Positions 1 to 11,366 are shown, counted from the stretch's first letter. The stretch is DNA of 11,367 nucleotides from Candidatus Aenigmatarchaeota archaeon (GCA_044343545.1 JAWBZR010000016.1:1-11367); one strand, 5' to 3'. Translations and numbers: made by a program. Notes: generated by a model from the sequence alone, not told the origin.

Positions 1-34
1 TCAATCACCTTCTGTTTCCTCTCAATCACCCTCT
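1..34 (+). repeat. Imperfect direct repeat with 21-bp period, encoding a Ser/Pro-rich linker (SQSPS x2)
   Basis: tcaatcaccttct at 1-13 and tcaatcaccctct at 22-34. It may continue upstream of the window. Confidence 0.6.
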
Positions 35-721
35 ATCACTACTCTATGCTCTGCTACTAACATTTTCGCCCCATTTCTTGTTAATTCCGGAGGTAAAATA
101 GGTATAGGAACAAGCACGCCTTTAACTCAGTTAGATGTGGCTGGAAAAATAAGGGCGACTGGAATTTGTTTGGGGAACTCATGCTACAATTCTTTCCCAG
201 AAAATTATTGGAGCAAGTTAGGAAACAACATTTTCTACAATTCGGGTGATGTTGGAATCGGCACAACTTCACCAGTCTACAAGCTCCACATCTACAATTC
301 AACTACCGACGGACCAGTTTTAAGGTTACAAGATACAGACGGCACTTGTGATGCCAACCCAGAATCTACTGGTGTGAGTTGGTCTTGCTCTTCAGACATT
401 CGCTTAAAGCAAAACATCCGTGACGCCCCACCGATTCTAGGTCAACTGATGCAAATCCCCATAAGGCAATTCGAGTTGAAAGCAAGCAATGAAACTAAAA
501 TAGGTGTGATAGCTCAAGAGCTTCAGCCAATAATGCCAGAATTGGTTTCGGAAGATGAAAACGGATATTTGATGGTAAAAGAGTTGAGTTCTTGGCAACT
601 TTTAAAAGCAATTCAAGAGCAGCAACAACAAATAGAGCAATTAAAATTGCAAGTTTCTCAATTAAAAGCAATGGTATGCTCGGATCATCCTAATTCAACT
701 ATCTGCAACTCTCCGGAATAG
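2..721 (+). CDS. C-terminal part (5'-truncated) of a tail-fibre-like surface protein with a peptidase S74 intramolecular chaperone domain
   Basis: The frame is open from base 2 (QSPSVSSQSPSITTLCSATNIFAPFLVNSGGKIGIGTSTPLTQLDV...), so the GTG at 137 is probably internal. It has two fibre-type repeats (GKIGIGTSTP..QLDV and GDVGIGTTSP..KLHI), the S74 motif SDIRLKQNI starting at 392, then IGVIAQEL and a C-terminal coiled coil (KAIQEQQQQIEQLK). Confidence 0.88.
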   Translation, partial: QSPSVSSQSPSITTLCSATNIFAPFLVNSGGKIGIGTSTPLTQLDVAGKIRATGICLGNSCYNSFPENYWSKLGNNIFYNSGDVGIGTTSPVYKLHIYNSTTDGPVLRLQDTDGTCDANPESTGVSWSCSSDIRLKQNIRDAPPILGQLMQIPIRQFELKASNETKIGVIAQELQPIMPELVSEDENGYLMVKELSSWQLLKAIQEQQQQIEQLKLQVSQLKAMVCSDHPNSTICNSPE

Positions 722-3362: not shown

Positions 3363-3803
3363 TTACGTGTAAACCAATACAACAACCAAAAATAATGTTA
3401 ACAAAAATTCTTCAATAGATAATGTTTTTATGAAACCTCTAGTTTCAATTTTGTTAAAAGGTTTTAAAGGATTTGAGCTATAGTAGCTTACCCAATCAAG
3501 TATGCAATGAGTTATGCCGCAAAAAAATGGCAAAAAACTTTTTATCATAAAAGATATTATAAGGGCAAGAAACAAACCACCGCACTCCTGAAGCCAAGTC
3601 CTTCTCTTAGCACCTCTTTTTAGGAAGCGTTTTGAAAATTCACTAAAATTTTTCGTTTTTCTCCATTCCATCATACCTTTTGCAATTTCATCCAAATCTA
3701 TAAGCACACCAAACAAGAAGCAGAAAAATTTTTCAAGAAATGTCAAAGGAGAAAATGCATTTATTATTATTATTGTGGAAAGCAAGTGTGTTGTAAAAAA
3801 CAT
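3363..3803 (-). CDS. Membrane-bound metal-dependent hydrolase, YdjM/DUF457-like
   Basis: Motif order MFFTTH, GVLIDLDE, RRTWLQE, THCILD, PLKPF with hydrophobic helices between. The start was placed at the ATG at 3803 because it gives the family-typical MxxxTH N-terminus and avoids overlap with the next gene. Confidence 0.72.
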   Translation of the reverse strand: MFFTTHLLSTIIIINAFSPLTFLEKFFCFLFGVLIDLDEIAKGMMEWRKTKNFSEFSKRFLKRGAKRRTWLQECGGLFLALIISFMIKSFLPFFCGITHCILDWVSYYSSNPLKPFNKIETRGFIKTLSIEEFLLTLFLVVVLVYT

Positions 3804-3837
3804 ATAAATAAATTGTTGTTTAATTAAAATAAAAATT
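3803..3837. promoter_or_regulatory. Divergent intergenic region (34-bp spacer 3804-3837) with a TATA box for the Hsp20-TIP49 unit
   Basis: TATAAATA at 3803-3810 lies 28-35 nt upstream of the ATG at 3838. Confidence 0.5.
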
Positions 3838-4425
3838 ATGTTTTGGAGAAAATCTTGCAATTTTTGTGGCTATAAGCTCAAAAAAGATTGGAATTTTTGC
3901 CCTAAATGCGGAAATCCCATAGGAGCAGGAGGTATAATGAGGGACGTTTTTGAAGATATAGAGAAAGAGTTTGAAAGGATTGACAAGATGTTCAGGATAG
4001 ATACAAGAGAACTTGGCTCTCAAGACATAAGAGGAGGAAGTTTACATATCACTATCCAAAGTGGCACAGGTATACAACCAAAGATTGAGGTAAAGACGAC
4101 AGGAGATTACAAGGCCTTGGAACCAGAAATAAAAAGAAAATTAGGAATAAGTGAAGAAAAAGTTGAAGAAAGAGCAAGAAAGTTTAAGATAACAGAAGAG
4201 CCAGAAACTAAAAAGATAGTGCAGCATGGAAAAACCATTTTGAAAATAGAGTTGCCAGGCGTGAAAAGTGAAGATGATATAGAAATAAAGAGGTTAGAGC
4301 AAAGTATAGAAATAAAAGCCTTTGCAGGTGACAAAGCATATTTCAAGCTCATTCCAATTCCTGAAAATGCTTCCATGAGCAAAAGATTCAAGGATGGTAT
4401 TCTAGAAATAGAAATTCAAGGGTGA
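3838..4425 (+). CDS. Zinc-ribbon plus Hsp20/alpha-crystallin-fold protein
   Basis: N-terminal CNFC-x10-CPKCG. The C-terminal region has Hsp20-type motifs EEPET, IELPGVKSEDDIEI, SIEIKA and FKDGILEIEI. Confidence 0.85.
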   Translation: MFWRKSCNFCGYKLKKDWNFCPKCGNPIGAGGIMRDVFEDIEKEFERIDKMFRIDTRELGSQDIRGGSLHITIQSGTGIQPKIEVKTTGDYKALEPEIKRKLGISEEKVEERARKFKITEEPETKKIVQHGKTILKIELPGVKSEDDIEIKRLEQSIEIKAFAGDKAYFKLIPIPENASMSKRFKDGILEIEIQG

Positions 4426-4426
4426 T
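4419..4426 (+). promoter_or_regulatory. Shine-Dalgarno-like sequence AGGGTGAT containing the Hsp20 stop codon
   Basis: It matches the archaeal consensus GGAGGTGAT and lies 4 nt before an in-frame TTG at 4431. Confidence 0.55.
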
Positions 4427-5789
4427 TTCTTTGACGCAAGTCAGAGAAATCGTCGAGAACATCAGAGAATGGGAGAGAATATCGGCTCACTCTCACATAA
4501 AAGGTTTGGGTTTAGATGGATTAAAGGCAAAACCTGTAGCAGATGGTATGGTTGGTCAAATAGAAGCAAGAGAAGCTGCTGGAATAGTTGTTAGGTTAAT
4601 CAAGCAAGGCAAGTTTGGTGGCAGAGGCATACTATTAGCAGGTCCACCAGGAACAGGCAAGACAGCTTTGGCTATGGGTATTGCAAGAGAATTGGGTATG
4701 GATGTACCTTTCGTCCATCTAACAGCGAGTGAAATATTTTCTACCGAGATGAGAAAGACCGAATTTTTAACCCAAGTCCTCAGAAAGGCTATAGGGGCAA
4801 GGATTCACGAAATGAGAAAGGTGTACGAAGGCGAGATTAAAGAGATATCAATAGAAAAAACTCAACATCCTTATAATCCTTATCAGCAAATACCTGTTGC
4901 TGCAACTATAAAGATTGCTACGACTGATGAATCCAAAAAATTAACTATGGATCAATCCTTTGCTATACAGCTAATTCAGCAGGGCATCGAAACAGGAGAT
5001 GTGGTGCAAATAGATGTTGATGGAGGTAGAATTGTAAAGTTGGGAAAAAGCAAGAGCGACGAAAAAAAATATGACTTGGAAACATCACAATTGATAGAAA
5101 CACCTAAAGGAAAGGTTTTCAAGGAAAAAGAATTTGTTTACACTGTTACTTTGCATCATCTAGATGTCGCCAGCTCGAGGCAAGGCGAAGATATATTTAG
5201 TTTGTTTTTTGGTGGTAGGAGTTCAAAAGAAATAGATAATGAAATAAGGAAAGAGGTTGATGAATATATTAAAGAGCTTGTTAGGCAAGGGAAATGTGAA
5301 TTGCTTCCAGGTGTGGTGTTTATAGATGAGTGTAGTATGCTTGACATCGAATCTTTTGCCTTTCTCAATAGAGCAATGGAGCAGGAACTTTCACCTATAA
5401 TAATTTTTGCCACCAATAGAGGTTTTTCTACAATAAGAGGGACTGATATAAAATCACCTCATGGCATGCCTCTCGACCTATTGGATAGAATGCTGATAAT
5501 CAATACAAAACCTTACAAAAAGGATGAAATAAAAAAGATTTTGGAGACGAGAGCAAAAGTGGAAAAGATAGATTTGGATAAGGAAGCTTTGGAGTATTTA
5601 ACAGATTTAGGGGAAAAAAACAGCTTGAGATATGCTATTCAACTCATTGCACCTGCATATGAATATGCCAAAGAAAACAAAGTAGAAAAAATAAAAAAAG
5701 AGCACTTGATGTATGTCGAGAAACTTTTTGTTGATATAAGCAAGTCTGTCGAATATTTGAGAGATTTCGAGAAAAAATTCATAGAATAA
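4422..5789 (+). CDS. tip49: TIP49 / RuvB-like (Rvb1/Rvb2, RUVBL) AAA+ ATPase
   Basis: ERISAHSHIKGLGL, GMVGQIEAREAAG, Walker A GPPGTGKT (4641-4664), Walker B FIDECSMLDIE, ATNRG and SPHGMPLDLLDR, with the DII insertion. The start is either the GTG at 4422 (GTGA overlap) or the TTG at 4431. Confidence 0.96.
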   Translation: MISLTQVREIVENIREWERISAHSHIKGLGLDGLKAKPVADGMVGQIEAREAAGIVVRLIKQGKFGGRGILLAGPPGTGKTALAMGIARELGMDVPFVHLTASEIFSTEMRKTEFLTQVLRKAIGARIHEMRKVYEGEIKEISIEKTQHPYNPYQQIPVAATIKIATTDESKKLTMDQSFAIQLIQQGIETGDVVQIDVDGGRIVKLGKSKSDEKKYDLETSQLIETPKGKVFKEKEFVYTVTLHHLDVASSRQGEDIFSLFFGGRSSKEIDNEIRKEVDEYIKELVRQGKCELLPGVVFIDECSMLDIESFAFLNRAMEQELSPIIIFATNRGFSTIRGTDIKSPHGMPLDLLDRMLIINTKPYKKDEIKKILETRAKVEKIDLDKEALEYLTDLGEKNSLRYAIQLIAPAYEYAKENKVEKIKKEHLMYVEKLFVDISKSVEYLRDFEKKFIE

Positions 5790-5801
5790 TTCTTTGTTTT
5801 T
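5790..5801 (+). terminator. Possible oligo(T) terminator
   Basis: ttctttgttttt lies directly after the TIP49 stop, between convergent genes. Confidence 0.35.
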
Positions 5802-6382
5802 CATGTAAACATTTTAGGATTTGATGAATAAAAGCCAGCTAAATAAGATATTACAGCCACACCAACCAAAAGGAATAAAAGGAGTATTAATAGCAATAAT
5901 ATCAATATAGGTATAAACCATACGAGGAATGCTTTACCTAATGAGATGGCATGAATAAAAGAAATGCCTTTAATGAAAATATAAATTCCGTAAATTGAGC
6001 CTAATATTCCTATGTATGGTATCCAACCGAAAAGTATTGACGGTGTCATTCCATAAACATAAGCCTTGAAAGTTCCTTCATATGGAGCATAACCGCCAAA
6101 CAATTTTGCGAATATGTGAAATATACCAGCAAAGATAAATGAAAATATAGTTGTAGTAACAAATTCCATAAGAATCGAATTTACTGTTTCATTTGGAGAA
6201 ACGGGGAAGTTGGCTAAAAATAACAAAACTCTTATTGCTTTTGATATCGCATTAATCATGAGAAAATATAAGAATGCTGCAGAAAAAGGTTCTTTTCTAA
6301 TGAACTTGAATAATTCTTCGGGTTTTGTTAAAGCATATACCATTTTTTGAAATACGTTAAGATTTGTTTGACTTTCCATCAT
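5801..6382 (-). CDS. Yip1-domain membrane protein
   Basis: ALTKPEELFKFI, HIFAKLFGG.APYEGTFKAYVYGMTP, WIPYIG, GISFIHAISLGKA and about five transmembrane segments. Confidence 0.87.
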   Translation of the reverse strand: MMESQTNLNVFQKMVYALTKPEELFKFIRKEPFSAAFLYFLMINAISKAIRVLLFLANFPVSPNETVNSILMEFVTTTIFSFIFAGIFHIFAKLFGGYAPYEGTFKAYVYGMTPSILFGWIPYIGILGSIYGIYIFIKGISFIHAISLGKAFLVWFIPILILLLLILLLFLLVGVAVISYLAGFYSSNPKMFT

Positions 6383-7945: not shown

Positions 7946-8806
7946 TCAACACATTTCATCTATGAGTTGATCTATATTTATATCTTCTATTTTTTGCTTC
8001 ACCAAAGGCAATTCGGCTATTTGAGGTAGTTCCTCTTCGTAGGTTTTTCTTTCTTCCTTGTAAAACACGCCTATAGGTATTTTATCCCCCCATTCAAGTG
8101 CCTTTTCAAATGCTTTTTGTTTGTTATTTTGCTCATAATTCGGATCTTCCTCAAGCTTGTAAATTCTTTTTTTAAAGAATTCAAAAGTGTTTAGATAGTT
8201 GAATGTAATGCAAGGTTGTAAGACATCTATCAAAGCGAAACCCTTATGTTGAATACCTTGCACTATAAGTTTGGTGAGATGCTGCACATCACCTGCAAAA
8301 CCTCTTGCCACAAAAGAGCAATCCGATGACAGAGCTAAAGCTATAGGATTAATAGGCGGCTCTATCAAGCCATGAGGCGTGGATTTGGTTTTAAATCCCT
8401 TTTCGCTCGTCGGAGAAGCTTGACCTGTAGTTAATCCATAAATTTGATTGTTGTGAACTATGTAAGTAATATCAACATTTCTTCTCATCGCGTGTATAAA
8501 ATGTCCAATTCCAATACCATATCCATCACCATCTCCACCTACGGCTATGACTTTTAGCTTGTGATTTGAGAGCTTTATGGCTTGTGCCACAGGAAGAGCT
8601 CTTCCATGCAAGGAATGAAAGGCATATGTGTTTATCCATTGAGGTAAATGACCGGAGCAGCCTATACCTGAAACTATTACCACTTCATGTTTTGGTAAAT
8701 TTAACTCGACTATGGCATTTTTTATAGCATTTAATATACCCCAATTACCGCATCCAGGGCACCACGTCGGCTTTTCTATCGTGCTTAATTCCTCAAATGT
8801 TGTCAA
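7946..8806 (-). CDS. korB: 2-oxoacid:ferredoxin oxidoreductase beta subunit
   Basis: WCPGCG, SGIGCS, HSLHGRALP, TPP-binding GGDGD...NNQIYGLTTGQASPT and LQPC. TTG start overlapping the alpha gene by 14 bp. Substrate not determined. Confidence 0.95.
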   Translation of the reverse strand: MTTFEELSTIEKPTWCPGCGNWGILNAIKNAIVELNLPKHEVVIVSGIGCSGHLPQWINTYAFHSLHGRALPVAQAIKLSNHKLKVIAVGGDGDGYGIGIGHFIHAMRRNVDITYIVHNNQIYGLTTGQASPTSEKGFKTKSTPHGLIEPPINPIALALSSDCSFVARGFAGDVQHLTKLIVQGIQHKGFALIDVLQPCITFNYLNTFEFFKKRIYKLEEDPNYEQNNKQKAFEKALEWGDKIPIGVFYKEERKTYEEELPQIAELPLVKQKIEDINIDQLIDEMC

Positions 8807-10526
8807 ATATCAACACCTCTTCTACCTTTTCTGCAATTTCTTCAGGCAAGAAAGGCCTTCCATCATATTTTAATATCTTGTAATCCATATCAATCCCAGT
8901 CATTTCTTTTATCACCCCACCTAGTTGCGCGGTTTTGTTGTTTTCGATCAATATCTTTTTTTTGCAATCTTCAAGATGAGATTTCACTTTGTTTGTTGGA
9001 AAAGGAATTATGTAAACTATTTGCAAATATTTTACTTTTAACCCTTTTTTGCTCAATATTTTCATCGCCTCCAATATTGGGCCTTTGGTCGAACCCCAAC
9101 TAACCAACACTACTTCTGCATCTTCATCACCGTAAACCTTTACACCATCTATTTCGCTCTCTAAAACTTTTAGCTTTCTGAACCTCTTGTCCATTTGAAT
9201 GACTCTATTTGAAGGATCTTCTTCCAGCCTTCCATATTCATCGTGCTCATCTGTTGCTGCCTTGAATATTCCATTTTCATTTGAAGGAATACATCTCAAG
9301 GAAACACCAGTAATTGTGTTCTCATATCTTTTGTAATCTTTTAATTGACCATCCGTTTTCAATAAACCTCTATCAATTTTCAAATTTTTTGTGAAGAAAG
9401 GATCTATCGTGAAATGTGATTCGGCTAAAAACTTATCCGTCAATATAATGACAGGCAATTGATACTTTTCAGCTATATTGAATGCGTTAAATGTTTCGTA
9501 AAAACATTCTATCGGGTCTCCCGGAGCAATTACCACTCTTGGAAATTCCCCATTCGAAGCATGCATGACAAATCTCAAATCACTTTGCTCTGTATGTGTA
9601 GGCATGCCAGTTGATGGTCCAGGTCTTTGCGCAAGTACTATTACAAGCGGTGTTTCCGTCATCGCAGCCAAACCCAAAGCTTCCGTCATTAATGCGAAAC
9701 CTCCACCAGACGTTCCTGTCATAGCCCTTACACCAGCAAAACTCGCACCTATTGCCATATGCACCGCTGCTATTTCGTCTTCCGTTTGTTTGACTATTAT
9801 ATTGTAATCATATTCTTTCGATGCTAGATAATGCAAGATAGATGATGCAGGTGTCATGGGATAGGCAGCATAAAATTTACACCCAGCTTTTATAGCACCT
9901 ATTGCGATAGCCTCATTTCCATTTATGTACATTCTTTTTCCTTTTTTGCAAAGCTTTGCTTCTATTTTTTTAATTGTAGGAAAATTTTGTTTGACATATT
10001 CATATCCAGCCTTTGCAACATTCATGTTTAATGAAGAAACATTTTCACCTTTTTTTTCTTTGAAAATTTCTCTTATCACATCAAAAAGAAAGTTAACATC
10101 AACGTTCGTCAATGCGAAGCTCGCACCCAAAGCAACATTATTTCTCATTATGTTTTGCCCACCATTTTCTATGGCTATTTGTGTCAAAGGGACAGGAATC
10201 AAGTTTACATTTTTTATCGTTTCATTCAAGCTAACAGAGTTTTCATCATAAATTATGTAACCATCCTTTCTAACTTCATCTTTGTGTTTCTTCAATGTGA
10301 AATCATTTAGTGCGACTAAAACATCAATCTTTTTATTGTGCGAGTATATAGGTTCATCGCTTATTCTGACAGTATAAGTATTATGCCCGCCTCTTATCAA
10401 TGAGGGGTATTCATTCGTGTCAAAAGCAAAAAATCCTGCTCTAACAAACGATTTGCCAAAAATAAATCCTGTAGTCATTATACCATAACCAGCTTCTCCG
10501 CCGATTTTCCAAGAAAAATCCACCAT
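8793..10526 (-). CDS. korA: 2-oxoacid:ferredoxin oxidoreductase alpha subunit (gamma-alpha fused type)
   Basis: GGEAGYG, YPSLIRGGHN, GNEAIAIGA, YPMTPAS, EDEIAA, TSGGGFALM, QRPGPSTGMPT, WGST, ENN and KYDGRPF. Confidence 0.96.
   Translation of the reverse strand: MVDFSWKIGGEAGYGIMTTGFIFGKSFVRAGFFAFDTNEYPSLIRGGHNTYTVRISDEPIYSHNKKIDVLVALNDFTLKKHKDEVRKDGYIIYDENSVSLNETIKNVNLIPVPLTQIAIENGGQNIMRNNVALGASFALTNVDVNFLFDVIREIFKEKKGENVSSLNMNVAKAGYEYVKQNFPTIKKIEAKLCKKGKRMYINGNEAIAIGAIKAGCKFYAAYPMTPASSILHYLASKEYDYNIIVKQTEDEIAAVHMAIGASFAGVRAMTGTSGGGFALMTEALGLAAMTETPLVIVLAQRPGPSTGMPTHTEQSDLRFVMHASNGEFPRVVIAPGDPIECFYETFNAFNIAEKYQLPVIILTDKFLAESHFTIDPFFTKNLKIDRGLLKTDGQLKDYKRYENTITGVSLRCIPSNENGIFKAATDEHDEYGRLEEDPSNRVIQMDKRFRKLKVLESEIDGVKVYGDEDAEVVLVSWGSTKGPILEAMKILSKKGLKVKYLQIVYIIPFPTNKVKSHLEDCKKKILIENNKTAQLGGVIKEMTGIDMDYKILKYDGRPFLPEEIAEKVEEVLIFDNI
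8814..8819 (-). promoter_or_regulatory. Shine-Dalgarno GAGGTG for korB
   Basis: It lies 7 nt upstream of the TTG at 8806, inside the korA 3' end. Confidence 0.65.
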
Positions 10527-10564: not shown

Positions 10565-10993
10565 CTATTTTATATTAACAAAATCACCCACCTTAATACC
10601 GTTTTCTTTAGTAAAGTTTGCATTTACTTCTATAACATATTTTGTCGGGTGCAGGGAAGAATAAACAGGGCAAGAATCTTCGATGCACGGTTGAATATTT
10701 TCTTTTATTTCATTTATTGTTCCATTTGCCGAGATGAAAATCATATCCAAAGGAATTAAAGTGTTTTTCATCCAAAAGCTTACATTCATTTCTTGATCAA
10801 AAACAAAAAGCATCCCTCTATTTTTGGCCAAGTTCTTCCTGAACATCAAGCCTTTAATTCTCTCATCATCTTCATCTGCAACTTCCACATATACCCTTAC
10901 AACTTTTCCCTCGGTAGTGTAAATTTCCACGATCCTTTCAATGCAACCGCTTAAGAAGATTGCGAGCAAAATGATGAAAATTTTACTTAGCAT
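10565..10993 (-). CDS. DUF192 family lipoprotein
   Basis: VEVAD...GLMFR...GMLFVF...FWMKNTLIPLDMIFI...YVIEVNA, with lipobox-like LSGC. Its start overlaps the tpiA stop by 11 bp. Confidence 0.93.
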   Translation of the reverse strand: MLSKIFIILLAIFLSGCIERIVEIYTTEGKVVRVYVEVADEDDERIKGLMFRKNLAKNRGMLFVFDQEMNVSFWMKNTLIPLDMIFISANGTINEIKENIQPCIEDSCPVYSSLHPTKYVIEVNANFTKENGIKVGDFVNIK

Positions 10994-11366
10994 ATTTTAT
11001 CATTTCTCTCAAAACCTTTTCTGGATTTTTCGATTTGACGATAGCAGAGCTTACGAGAACACCAACCGTTCCCAACTCCATCGCTTTTTTCACATCTTCC
11101 CCTTTACTTATTCCCGCGCCACAAATCACTTTAATGCTTTCATCAATTCTCTTCACTACGTTTACAACATCAGATATGATCTTCGGTTTTACTTGAGATA
11201 CTGCTATTCCAGTTTCTATCAATTCTGGAGGTTCGATTGCTATGTAATCAGGTTTTATTTTTGCGCATAGAGAAGCCATTCTTTTGTCGGCAACACATAC
11301 TATGGATTTAATATTCGCTCTTTTACAAGCTTCCACACATTTCTTTACATTTTCAAAACTTAATCT
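10983..11366 (-). CDS. tpiA: Archaeal-type triosephosphate isomerase, C-terminal part (5' end outside the window)
   Basis: IAIEPPELIETG, ICGAGI, GVLVSSAIVKS. The frame stays open to the window edge (RLSFENVKKCVEACK...). Confidence 0.92.
   Translation of the reverse strand, partial: RLSFENVKKCVEACKRANIKSIVCVADKRMASLCAKIKPDYIAIEPPELIETGIAVSQVKPKIISDVVNVVKRIDESIKVICGAGISKGEDVKKAMELGTVGVLVSSAIVKSKNPEKVLREMIKYAK

Follow-up and report, generated by a model that had tools for sequence, protein, structure and literature searches.

What does a RuvB-like AAA+ ATPase of the TIP49 family do directly behind a gene for a small heat-shock protein (sHSP)? The question is raised by a DNA stretch of 11,367 nucleotides (nt) from a Candidatus Aenigmatarchaeota archaeon (GCA_044343545.1, JAWBZR010000016.1:1-11367), which we call the window; it is contig 8 of a genome of 651 kb in 22 contigs that is 90% complete. 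The Aenigmatarchaeota are a DPANN phylum, and this tiny member of it probably comes from a hot spring. Two genes on its plus strand are concerned, one for an sHSP carrying a zinc ribbon (3838..4425, ATG start, 195 amino acids, subfamily A) and one for TIP49 (4431..5789). We know of no established cellular role of archaeal TIP49, and in the literature searched the protein turns up only as incidental mentions in proteomic work. A preliminary description of this DNA proposed that the two genes form a minimal archaeal counterpart of the eukaryotic R2TP co-chaperone, in which the sHSP may be a dedicated adaptor or holdase for TIP49. The reading which we favour, at somewhat better than even confidence, is a different one, namely that the genes constitute a translationally coupled stress or proteostasis operon.

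The sHSP-TIP49 junction and its spread

The gene calls bear out that the two genes form a unit divergent from its upstream and convergent with its downstream neighbour, and that the sHSP stop codon is embedded in the ribosome-binding site of TIP49, both as first described. The last sHSP codon, GGG (4420-4422), and the TGA stop (4423-4425) provide the Shine-Dalgarno sequence GGTGAT (4421..4426, plus strand), which sits 4 nt upstream of a TTG codon (4431-4433). A GTG codon (4422-4424) overlapping the sHSP stop is the alternative start, but an alignment of 14 TIP49 N-termini puts the usual methionine at the TTG and position 4431 is therefore the likely start. Since no 16S rRNA gene was found in the assembly of the window's genome, the anti-Shine-Dalgarno sequence was read from a genome of the same genus (G003); its 16S rRNA ends in ...GGATCACCTCCTTTT, and GGTGAT is thus complementary to the tail.

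This junction recurs. GGTGA is found at the sHSP stop in 24 of the 27 locus rows in which a family member precedes TIP49 and in 0 of 26 non-adjacent homologues, whose stops are a mixture of TAA, TAG and TGA. The usual arrangement is a last codon AGG, GGG or CGG followed by TGA and then by a start codon 4-9 nt further on; the three exceptions read GGTAG, GGTAG and GGTAA. These counts include some redundancy among the adjacent rows (L120 repeats L020, and L040 is the same as L042), and related genomes are non-independent samples. The junction statistics are the strongest single evidence that the coupling is selected. Because the end of the sHSP gene, its last codon and stop, doubles as the ribosome-binding site of tip49, a ribosome that completes the sHSP is expected to go on to TIP49, and sHSP and TIP49 would thus be made together. 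A single transcript would be consistent with the surroundings of the pair. An AT-rich stretch (3808..3837, plus strand) with a TATA-like element ACATATAAATAAA some 20-30 nt before the sHSP ATG may be the promoter of a transcript with little or no leader, and the T-run after TIP49, an 11-nt T-rich spacer TTCTTTGTTTT (5790..5800) between the convergent stops of TIP49 and a Yip1 gene, is a possible terminator shared by these two genes; both were read from the sequence. That the sHSP and TIP49 genes form an operon with translational coupling is on these grounds very probable.

To see how far the pairing extends, TIP49 was surveyed in 370 genomes of the phylum (PF06068, E <=1e-40) and found in 57. 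The flanks of the TIP49 loci were assessed by open reading frame (ORF) calls and family hidden Markov models (HMMs); in seven genomes (G026, G027, G031, G033, G034, G038, G040) the arrangement was read from match coordinates and from the locus on the sHSP side only, and in G138 from match coordinates alone. The sHSP gene lies immediately upstream of tip49 on the same strand in 25 of the 57 genomes, so the adjacency is not confined to the window's genome, one of the ways in which the preliminary description could have failed. Another was that homologues normally pair with cdc48, and a Cdc48-like ORF is present in only 1 of 98 locus rows holding an sHSP family member. In four further genomes the sHSP gene is within about 1 kb of tip49, with one intervening gene in G024, G077 and G148 and a gap of about 0.4 kb in G138, and in three (G029, G142, G159) the relation is cut by contig ends. 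Adjacency holds in 4/4 TIP49-bearing genomes of family f1, 17/24 of f2, 2/17 of f5 and 2/2 of f8, the last belonging to a different order; the pair is thus found in at least four GTDB families and two orders. The intergenic gap, measured to the most upstream start codon, ranges from -11 to +6 nt in 28 adjacent locus rows.

Adjacency alone might of course be passive. Related genomes inherit gene order, and 25 of the 57 TIP49 genomes do not keep the adjacency, as would be expected of two neighbours with no shared function that came together by chance or have simply been kept in place. However, the pair, which occurs in two orders, persists while the genes on either side of it change: the flanking genes fall into 25 homology clusters, giving at least 14 upstream and 11 downstream contexts. 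The conserved junction signal, moreover, is specific to the adjacent copies, and the junction statistics refute passive synteny unless they go back to one inherited accident. A TIP49 tree (25 adjacent, 3 near, 19 non-adjacent and 10 outgroup rows; G006 with its fragmentary TIP49 was excluded, and G029, though cut on its upstream side, was scored as non-adjacent) requires 7-8 changes of adjacency, of which at least 5 are forced by well-supported branches. Adjacency is therefore scattered through the clade and is not one recent event; the layout is old in the clade and has been repeatedly broken. The resolution of the sHSP tree does not suffice to show whether sHSP and TIP49 moved together between families. 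We consider adjacency without any shared function scarcely credible.

Some further observations on these loci may be recorded here. In genus g22 (L040, L042, L045, L052, L056, L061, L074, L075) the pair is immediately preceded, on the same strand, by the gene for PCNA. A protein of 110-113 amino acids is encoded downstream of TIP49 in four loci and upstream of the zinc-ribbon sHSP gene in L008 and L066; the L008 member, the only one scanned, has a weak match to the ribosome-hibernation family S30AE. The 16S rRNA match of genome G026 (L197:1500-1510, minus strand) ends in ...GGATCACTCAGC without the CCTCC seen in G003, which could be an artefact of the assembly or of the end of the model; in its genus TIP49 lies behind the sHSP gene in 0 of 7 TIP49-bearing genomes.

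The two proteins and the comparison with R2TP

The TIP49 protein is present as one copy in the window's genome. Its match to PF06068 (E 2e-141) extends from position 1 to position 346 of the 347 in the profile, which means that the domain II insertion is included, and it also contains TIP49_C (PF17856). GPPGTGKT (74-81), D302 E303, N332, R356 and R403 show no variation among 14 relatives; the first two motifs we take to be Walker A and Walker B, and the other residues are presumably catalytic. As judged from these residues TIP49 is catalytically intact. In one related genome (G159; L072:1-2340, plus strand) TIP49 is interrupted by an intein: a frame of 779 amino acids, open at the contig start, carries LAGLIDADG_3 and Intein_splicing matches between profile positions of about 62 and 63, just past the P-loop region. 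The TIP49 proteins of two contigs labelled Thermoproteota and Methanosarcinales (L076 and L106) nest inside the Aenigmatarchaeota TIP49 clade, which points to mis-binned contigs or to horizontal transfer.

The sHSP is less orthodox. It begins with a Cys4 zinc ribbon (residues 5-28; PF13240, residues 7-27, E 1.7e-6), continues with an N-terminal helix (34-51), an insert consisting of a beta-hairpin and a helix (67-101) and an acidic linker, and ends in a short alpha-crystallin domain without a C-terminal tail (residues 118-195; 4189..4422, plus strand). The ribbon cysteines C7, C10, C21 and C24 are all invariant in 30 relatives; in a set of 133 sequences this still holds for C21 and C24, while C7 and C10 are conserved to at least 90%. 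The helix resembles, by comparison of consensus sequences, the N-terminal arm motif of neighbouring canonical sHSPs. The NCBIfam model NF041800 'archaeal Hsp20' aligns residues 34-194 with its positions 4-148 of 162 at E 2.5e-10, with a score of 40.2 bits against a curated cut-off of 140, so that the window protein is a relative and not a member of that family. The general Hsp20 model PF00011 did not match the whole protein at E 0.01 and gave 14.5 bits, below its cut-off of 20.8, with the C-terminal 86 residues. An hhalign comparison of a 30-sequence profile with 13 canonical PF00011 proteins of related genomes gave a probability of 93% and E 3.3e-7 over 76 columns; the region of the beta6 loop is deleted, as seen from gaps of 6 and 12 columns at its place in the canonical proteins. 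Searched against the PDB, the family profile had only one sequence match below E 0.001, the alpha-crystallin domain of Sulfolobus solfataricus Hsp20.1 (4RZK, E 7e-5), and a weak match to PH1819 (2een, E 0.015).

Structure prediction agrees with this assignment. Two models give residues 121-195 a mean predicted local distance difference test score (pLDDT) per block of 90-96, and eight strands are predicted within residues 118-194. The best Foldseek match of the C-terminal domain is 4rzk (E 6.9e-6, 28% identity), and in the VIA comparison five sHSP domains reach Z 11.6-12.0, with 4RZK sharing the top place at Z 11.9. The whole-protein models are less certain (pLDDT 74.3), and an alignment of 133 sequences brought no overall gain (pLDDT 74.0, predicted template modelling score 0.40). 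The hairpin-helix insert has block means of about 57-77 and no fold match of its own was seen; all 50 VIA rows listed align inside residues 105-195. In prokaryotic sHSPs the beta6 loop serves strand exchange in the dimer and a C-terminal I-x-I/V tail serves assembly of the oligomer. Both are missing in the window protein, which ends one residue past its last strand, whereas the neighbouring canonical Hsp20s end in ...EIKVE; an I-S-I-T-I sequence is conserved internally at residues 69-73. The matches in sequence and fold to sHSPs therefore lead us to conclude with good confidence that the protein is an atypical sHSP with an added zinc ribbon. It shares with Hsp20.1 and NF041800 the short alpha-crystallin domain without a long beta6 loop, and differs from them in having an N-terminal Cys4 ribbon and no C-terminal extension. 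Its relatives are named 'HSP20 family molecular chaperone IbpA' by JGI and 'zinc ribbon domain-containing protein' by NCBI, and every organism named among the 120 matches listed of 331 belongs to the Aenigmatarchaeota. The window's genome encodes a second, shorter zinc-ribbon paralogue of 167 amino acids, belonging to subfamily B, at the end of contig 1 (L156:1994-2497, minus strand).

The comparison with R2TP turns on this domain. If the pair were a true minimal R2TP, the sHSP would be a dedicated adaptor homologous to PIH1D1/Pih1. The C-terminal domain indeed has the fold of the PIH1D1 CS domain (6gxz_E; VIA Z 10.0, root-mean-square deviation 2.3, 75 residues), the subfamily B paralogue has a match to PIH1_CS which stays below threshold (E 0.0015, 19.4 bits, cut-off 23.3), and the box C/D protein Nop5, a possible client, is encoded in the genome. 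However, the other CS domains score lower than PIH1D1 (Sgt1 9.6, Shq1 8.6, p23 8.5, yeast Pih1 6.7) and the best of them lie about 2 Z units below the sHSP domains; what is common to all is the HSP20-like fold. By sequence the domain groups with the alpha-crystallin domains of sHSPs, and the models for CS (PF04969) and PIH1_CS (PF18201) gave no match to it up to E 10. A PIH1 domain was not found in the sHSP; a genome-wide search with the PIH1 profile gave no match either, but the model also matched no control genome. Neither Hsp90 (PF00183) nor zf-HIT was found in the 90%-complete genome; the TPR partners of R2TP were not searched for. The family is moreover common in genomes in which TIP49 was not found.

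RUVBL1/2 bind the HSP20-fold CS domain of SHQ1, as described in PMC9406135, which offers a precedent for a link between a TIP49-type ATPase and a protein of this fold. In R2TP, according to the same paper, the CS domain of Pih1/PIH1 binds Tah1/RPAP3 and not the RuvBL ring, while Tah1-Pih1 dock on domain II (PMC9406135). The likeness to the RUVBL1/2 systems lies in the company of a TIP49-family ATPase and an HSP20-fold protein, here by gene order only; the eukaryotic proteins are a pair, and here there is a single TIP49 gene. A homologous minimal R2TP is thus very improbable, and the preliminary description was right in its own caveat that the resemblance may be one of analogy.

Shared work or a shared promoter

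The operon reading hypothesizes that the sHSP-TIP49 unit is induced by stress. As a holdase the sHSP would bind proteins that are non-native, or subunits not yet assembled, with no need of ATP; TIP49 would be the ATP-driven partner which remodels, releases or assembles the proteins held by the sHSP. The two-gene form in the window has a three-gene counterpart in many relatives, headed by a canonical Hsp20. The order hsp20, zinc-ribbon sHSP, tip49 is found on one strand in 10 of the 25 adjacent genomes (G006, G042, G085, G086, G087, G089, G096, G139, G140, G146; PF00011, E 1e-17 to 1e-21), and hsp20 precedes the zinc-ribbon sHSP gene without TIP49 in G028 and G032. At locus L035 in genome G291 a winged-helix gene (139 amino acids) is located directly upstream of TIP49 on the same strand with a canonical Hsp20 gene divergent from them, a layout resembling HSR1 with TIP49 as the ATPase; in G045 a winged-helix gene is upstream of the zinc-ribbon sHSP gene, and in a locus from Bathyarchaeia (L121) an Hsp20 gene lies 300 nt downstream of TIP49. 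A kinase used as bait in Sulfolobus islandicus brought down TIP49 together with Cdc48, thermosome, Hsp20 and prefoldin, as reported in PMC5682000, which gives a weak and indirect hint of chaperone company for TIP49. The chaperone set of the window's 90%-complete genome also suits this reading: Hsp70 and Hsp90 were not found in it, and it has one thermosome and, elsewhere in the genome, one Cdc48-like gene. Co-occurrence points the same way, as the zinc-ribbon sHSP is present in 50 of the 57 genomes with TIP49 and in 128 of the 313 without it.

A conserved coupled unit with varying flanks and with heat-shock genes around it makes a functional link between the HSP20-fold protein and TIP49 a reasonable inference, and to this extent the preliminary description is supported. 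Real functional cooperation of the two proteins we put at slightly under an even chance.

The relatives show one more feature of this kind. Before their canonical hsp20 genes, between a TATA-like box and the start codon, there is a conserved and partly palindromic candidate heat-shock operator, TTAG(A/T)TTATTTAAAC(A/C)CTAA or TTAGTGT..ACACTAA (L037, L049, L054, L057, L064, L067, L039, L046, L026, L010). The palindrome (TAGTGT-N-ACACTA type) has 0 matches in the window's own genome.

A number of observations weigh against the operon reading. The first concerns its distribution. Surveyed at E <=1e-12 to the window protein, the zinc-ribbon sHSP family is present in 178 of the 370 genomes compared with 57 for TIP49, and in 128 genomes it occurs with no TIP49 found. 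Conversely it was not found in seven TIP49 genomes, of which six (G029, G142, G143, G159, G252, G258) are negative by a single-protein query and one (G372) by the family profile. In 25 of the 57 TIP49 genomes sHSP and tip49 are apart or the sHSP was not found, and since relatives share ancestry the counts of adjacent genomes overstate their independence. TIP49 has been lost or moved at least 3 times while the sHSP stayed: in G003 and G004, in G009, G010, G012 and G019 of family f1, and in G038 and G040, where the relocated TIP49 of this f5 genome (G040) is 10 kb away. The case of G003 and G004 is instructive. These genomes of the window's genus (95% and 93% complete) have an orthologue with 59-61% identity which is followed directly by the convergent Yip1 gene, so that Yip1 marks the place where TIP49 is missing, and TIP49 was not found in either genome; the sHSP tree groups the two as sisters of the window's pair (99% support).

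The second concerns archaea at large. Among 80 archaeal TIP49 loci, each taken with flanks of at most 4 kb, the sHSP family adjoins TIP49 in only 4, three labelled Aenigmatarchaeota and one, from a genome of 0.7 Mb, labelled Woesearchaeota. Of the other 76, only one has an Hsp20 within 4 kb by a dedicated HMM. Outside the clade the remaining neighbours of TIP49 are heterogeneous and include no sHSP (of 272 ORFs next to TIP49 in these loci, 150 were scanned with Pfam and the other 122 with the Hsp20 and zinc-ribbon sHSP HMMs only). The third concerns the window's own genome. A canonical Hsp20 (PF00011) was not found in the 90%-complete assembly, and in the window neither a regulator gene was seen nor a heat-shock operator found. 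The sHSP is accordingly a general family that also works without TIP49 and not a TIP49-specific subunit, and the word 'dedicated' has to be dropped from the earlier proposal in view of the 128 genomes, of G003 and G004, and of the 4 in 80 archaeal loci.

The same facts can be used for a simpler view, in which TIP49 keeps a nucleic-acid or ribonucleoprotein job and only shares a stress-responsive promoter, the two proteins having no common substrate and never touching. TIP49 elsewhere in archaea adjoins genes for RNA and DNA functions. It follows the exosome genes Rrp41-Rrp42 in other Aenigmatarchaeota (L079-L081), is placed between tmcA-ASCH and kptA in Thermoplasmata (L085, L087, L089), has NUDIX, TFS and PolB as neighbours in Archaeoglobi and Hjc, TrmI and others elsewhere; a different company is seen in two Bathyarchaeia (L107, L114), where it directly follows a thermosome gene. 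In 10 locus rows the pair has PCNA just before it, and the sHSP does without TIP49 in the 128 genomes already mentioned. Against mere co-regulation stands the stop-embedded ribosome-binding site in 24 of 27 adjacent but none of 26 non-adjacent cases, which is suggestive and not decisive. This junction bias speaks for selection on joint, proportionate synthesis, and such synthesis is commoner for proteins that work together. We regard co-regulation alone as unlikely, though a serious competitor of the coupled proteostasis operon.

A further possibility starts from the neighbours of the whole zinc-ribbon sHSP family and makes it an accessory of genome-maintenance machines and not a general holdase, the ribbon docking on them or on nucleic acid. 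Subfamily A adjoins TIP49, and in g22 PCNA is directly upstream. In L028, L031 and L033 a Hel308-like helicase gene (DEAD, Helicase_C and HTH_61) follows that of subfamily B at 35 nt, and such a helicase is at most 1 kb from subfamily B in L029, L030 and the window's own genome, in the last case at 826 nt and on the opposite strand. In a class-level sample of 40 sHSP loci, roughly one per genus, 9 have nre as a divergent neighbour of the sHSP gene at a distance of 15-97 nt (L162, L172, L176, L182, L185, L189, L191, L192, L194), and nre is nearby in 4 more; NreA/Nre is described in PMC4929162 as a PCNA-binding repair protein. However, these tiny genomes are likely to be rich in information-processing genes and such neighbours may be likelier by chance, so that they are weak evidence. 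The neighbours also vary by lineage, a canonical Hsp20 is frequent among them as well, and some contexts have nothing to do with genome maintenance: in family f39 a T2SS-F pair is found downstream of the sHSP gene, and elsewhere an aminotransferase, GDH and a tRNA endonuclease are neighbours. That the family is such an accessory is in our opinion improbable.

Within the coupled proteostasis operon the closest form of cooperation would be contact between the two proteins. Direct binding of the sHSP to TIP49 seems rather unlikely, and the more specific version, in which the sHSP would bind the TIP49 hexamer through the ribbon or the hairpin-helix insert and feed it non-native or unassembled proteins, is slightly less likely again.

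Flanking genes, known systems and significance

The genes on either side of the pair lie outside the unit. The divergent upstream neighbour (3363..3860, minus strand) encodes a membrane protein with a weak YdjM match; its TTG start overlaps the sHSP start, and the true start is therefore probably further inside the ORF. In G024 a YdjM gene is the one that separates the sHSP and TIP49 genes. The convergent downstream neighbour (5801..6382, minus strand), which encodes a membrane protein with a Yip1 domain, is reached 11 nt past the TIP49 stop. Elsewhere in the window (2-721, plus strand; 7946-10526 and 10983-11366, minus strand) there are a 5'-open ORF whose product contains Peptidase_S74 (endosialidase chaperone), genes for two 2-oxoacid:ferredoxin oxidoreductase subunits, one DUF192 gene and a fragment of triose-phosphate isomerase.

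The closest described system, and a precedent for the operon reading, is the analogous euryarchaeal Phr/HSR1 regulon. The Phr regulon of Pyrococcus/Thermococcus and the HSR1 regulon of Archaeoglobus are presented in PMC10653856 and PMC9133787 as gene sets in which a winged-helix repressor controls genes for an sHSP and an AAA+ ATPase. The likeness is that an sHSP gene and an AAA+ ATPase gene go together, here by gene order and coupling only, and that in relatives a canonical Hsp20 heads the array and winged-helix genes occur (G291, G045). The ATPase of the euryarchaeal heat-shock sets is of the Cdc48/VAT type. Here, unlike in those regulons, it is TIP49, the sHSP has a zinc ribbon, and the coupling is translational through a stop-embedded Shine-Dalgarno sequence.

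For the zinc ribbon the nearest parallels are Ruc and Hsp33, which likewise combine a Cys4 zinc module with an ATP-independent chaperone part; the likeness is one of architecture and we claim no sequence relationship. Ruc of Mycobacterium tuberculosis (Rv0991c) holds one zinc via four cysteines, and oxidation raises its chaperone activity, as reported in PMC7448276. Its chaperone part is disordered, unlike the alpha-crystallin domain found here. The ribbon of the window protein may serve as a structural cap or for docking, or it may be a switch operated by redox state or temperature like Ruc or Hsp33, the switch being a speculation.

The division of labour supposed in the operon also has a bacterial parallel. 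According to the account in PMC7448276, sHSPs present in aggregates permit refolding by ATPase chaperones. IbpA/B with DnaK-ClpB follow the same logic of a holdase and then an ATPase, and differ in that Hsp70 was not found in the window's genome. TIP49 is not known to us as a protein that threads or disaggregates others.

In the full-text literature searched, which includes few subscription journals, there is no paper on an sHSP-TIP49 operon or an archaeal zinc-ribbon sHSP. The finding extends the known heat-shock gene sets of sHSP and AAA+ ATPase by one with TIP49 in the place of the ATPase and a new sHSP architecture. The latter is an undescribed combination of a zinc ribbon with a tail-less alpha-crystallin domain, and it is the only type of sHSP found in this reduced genome. 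If the two genes have only a promoter in common, the finding shrinks to a clade-specific operon.

The two eukaryotic descendants of TIP49 are essential assembly chaperones which work with HSP20-fold (CS) proteins. Should direct binding of the sHSP to TIP49 be true, an assembly chaperone made of an HSP20-fold protein and a RuvB-like ATPase would have existed already in archaea, either as a forerunner of the partnerships between RUVBL1/2 and CS proteins (SHQ1, R2TP) or as an independent invention. Archaeal TIP49 would then gain a protein-remodelling role, and the Hel308, Nre and PCNA neighbours would mean that the clients of the family are genome-maintenance complexes. The layout is a testable hint that archaeal TIP49 may act in the quality control of proteins or complexes, and the gene order turns the question of whether TIP49 was a chaperone before eukaryotes into one that can be put to the test at the bench with two small, thermostable proteins.

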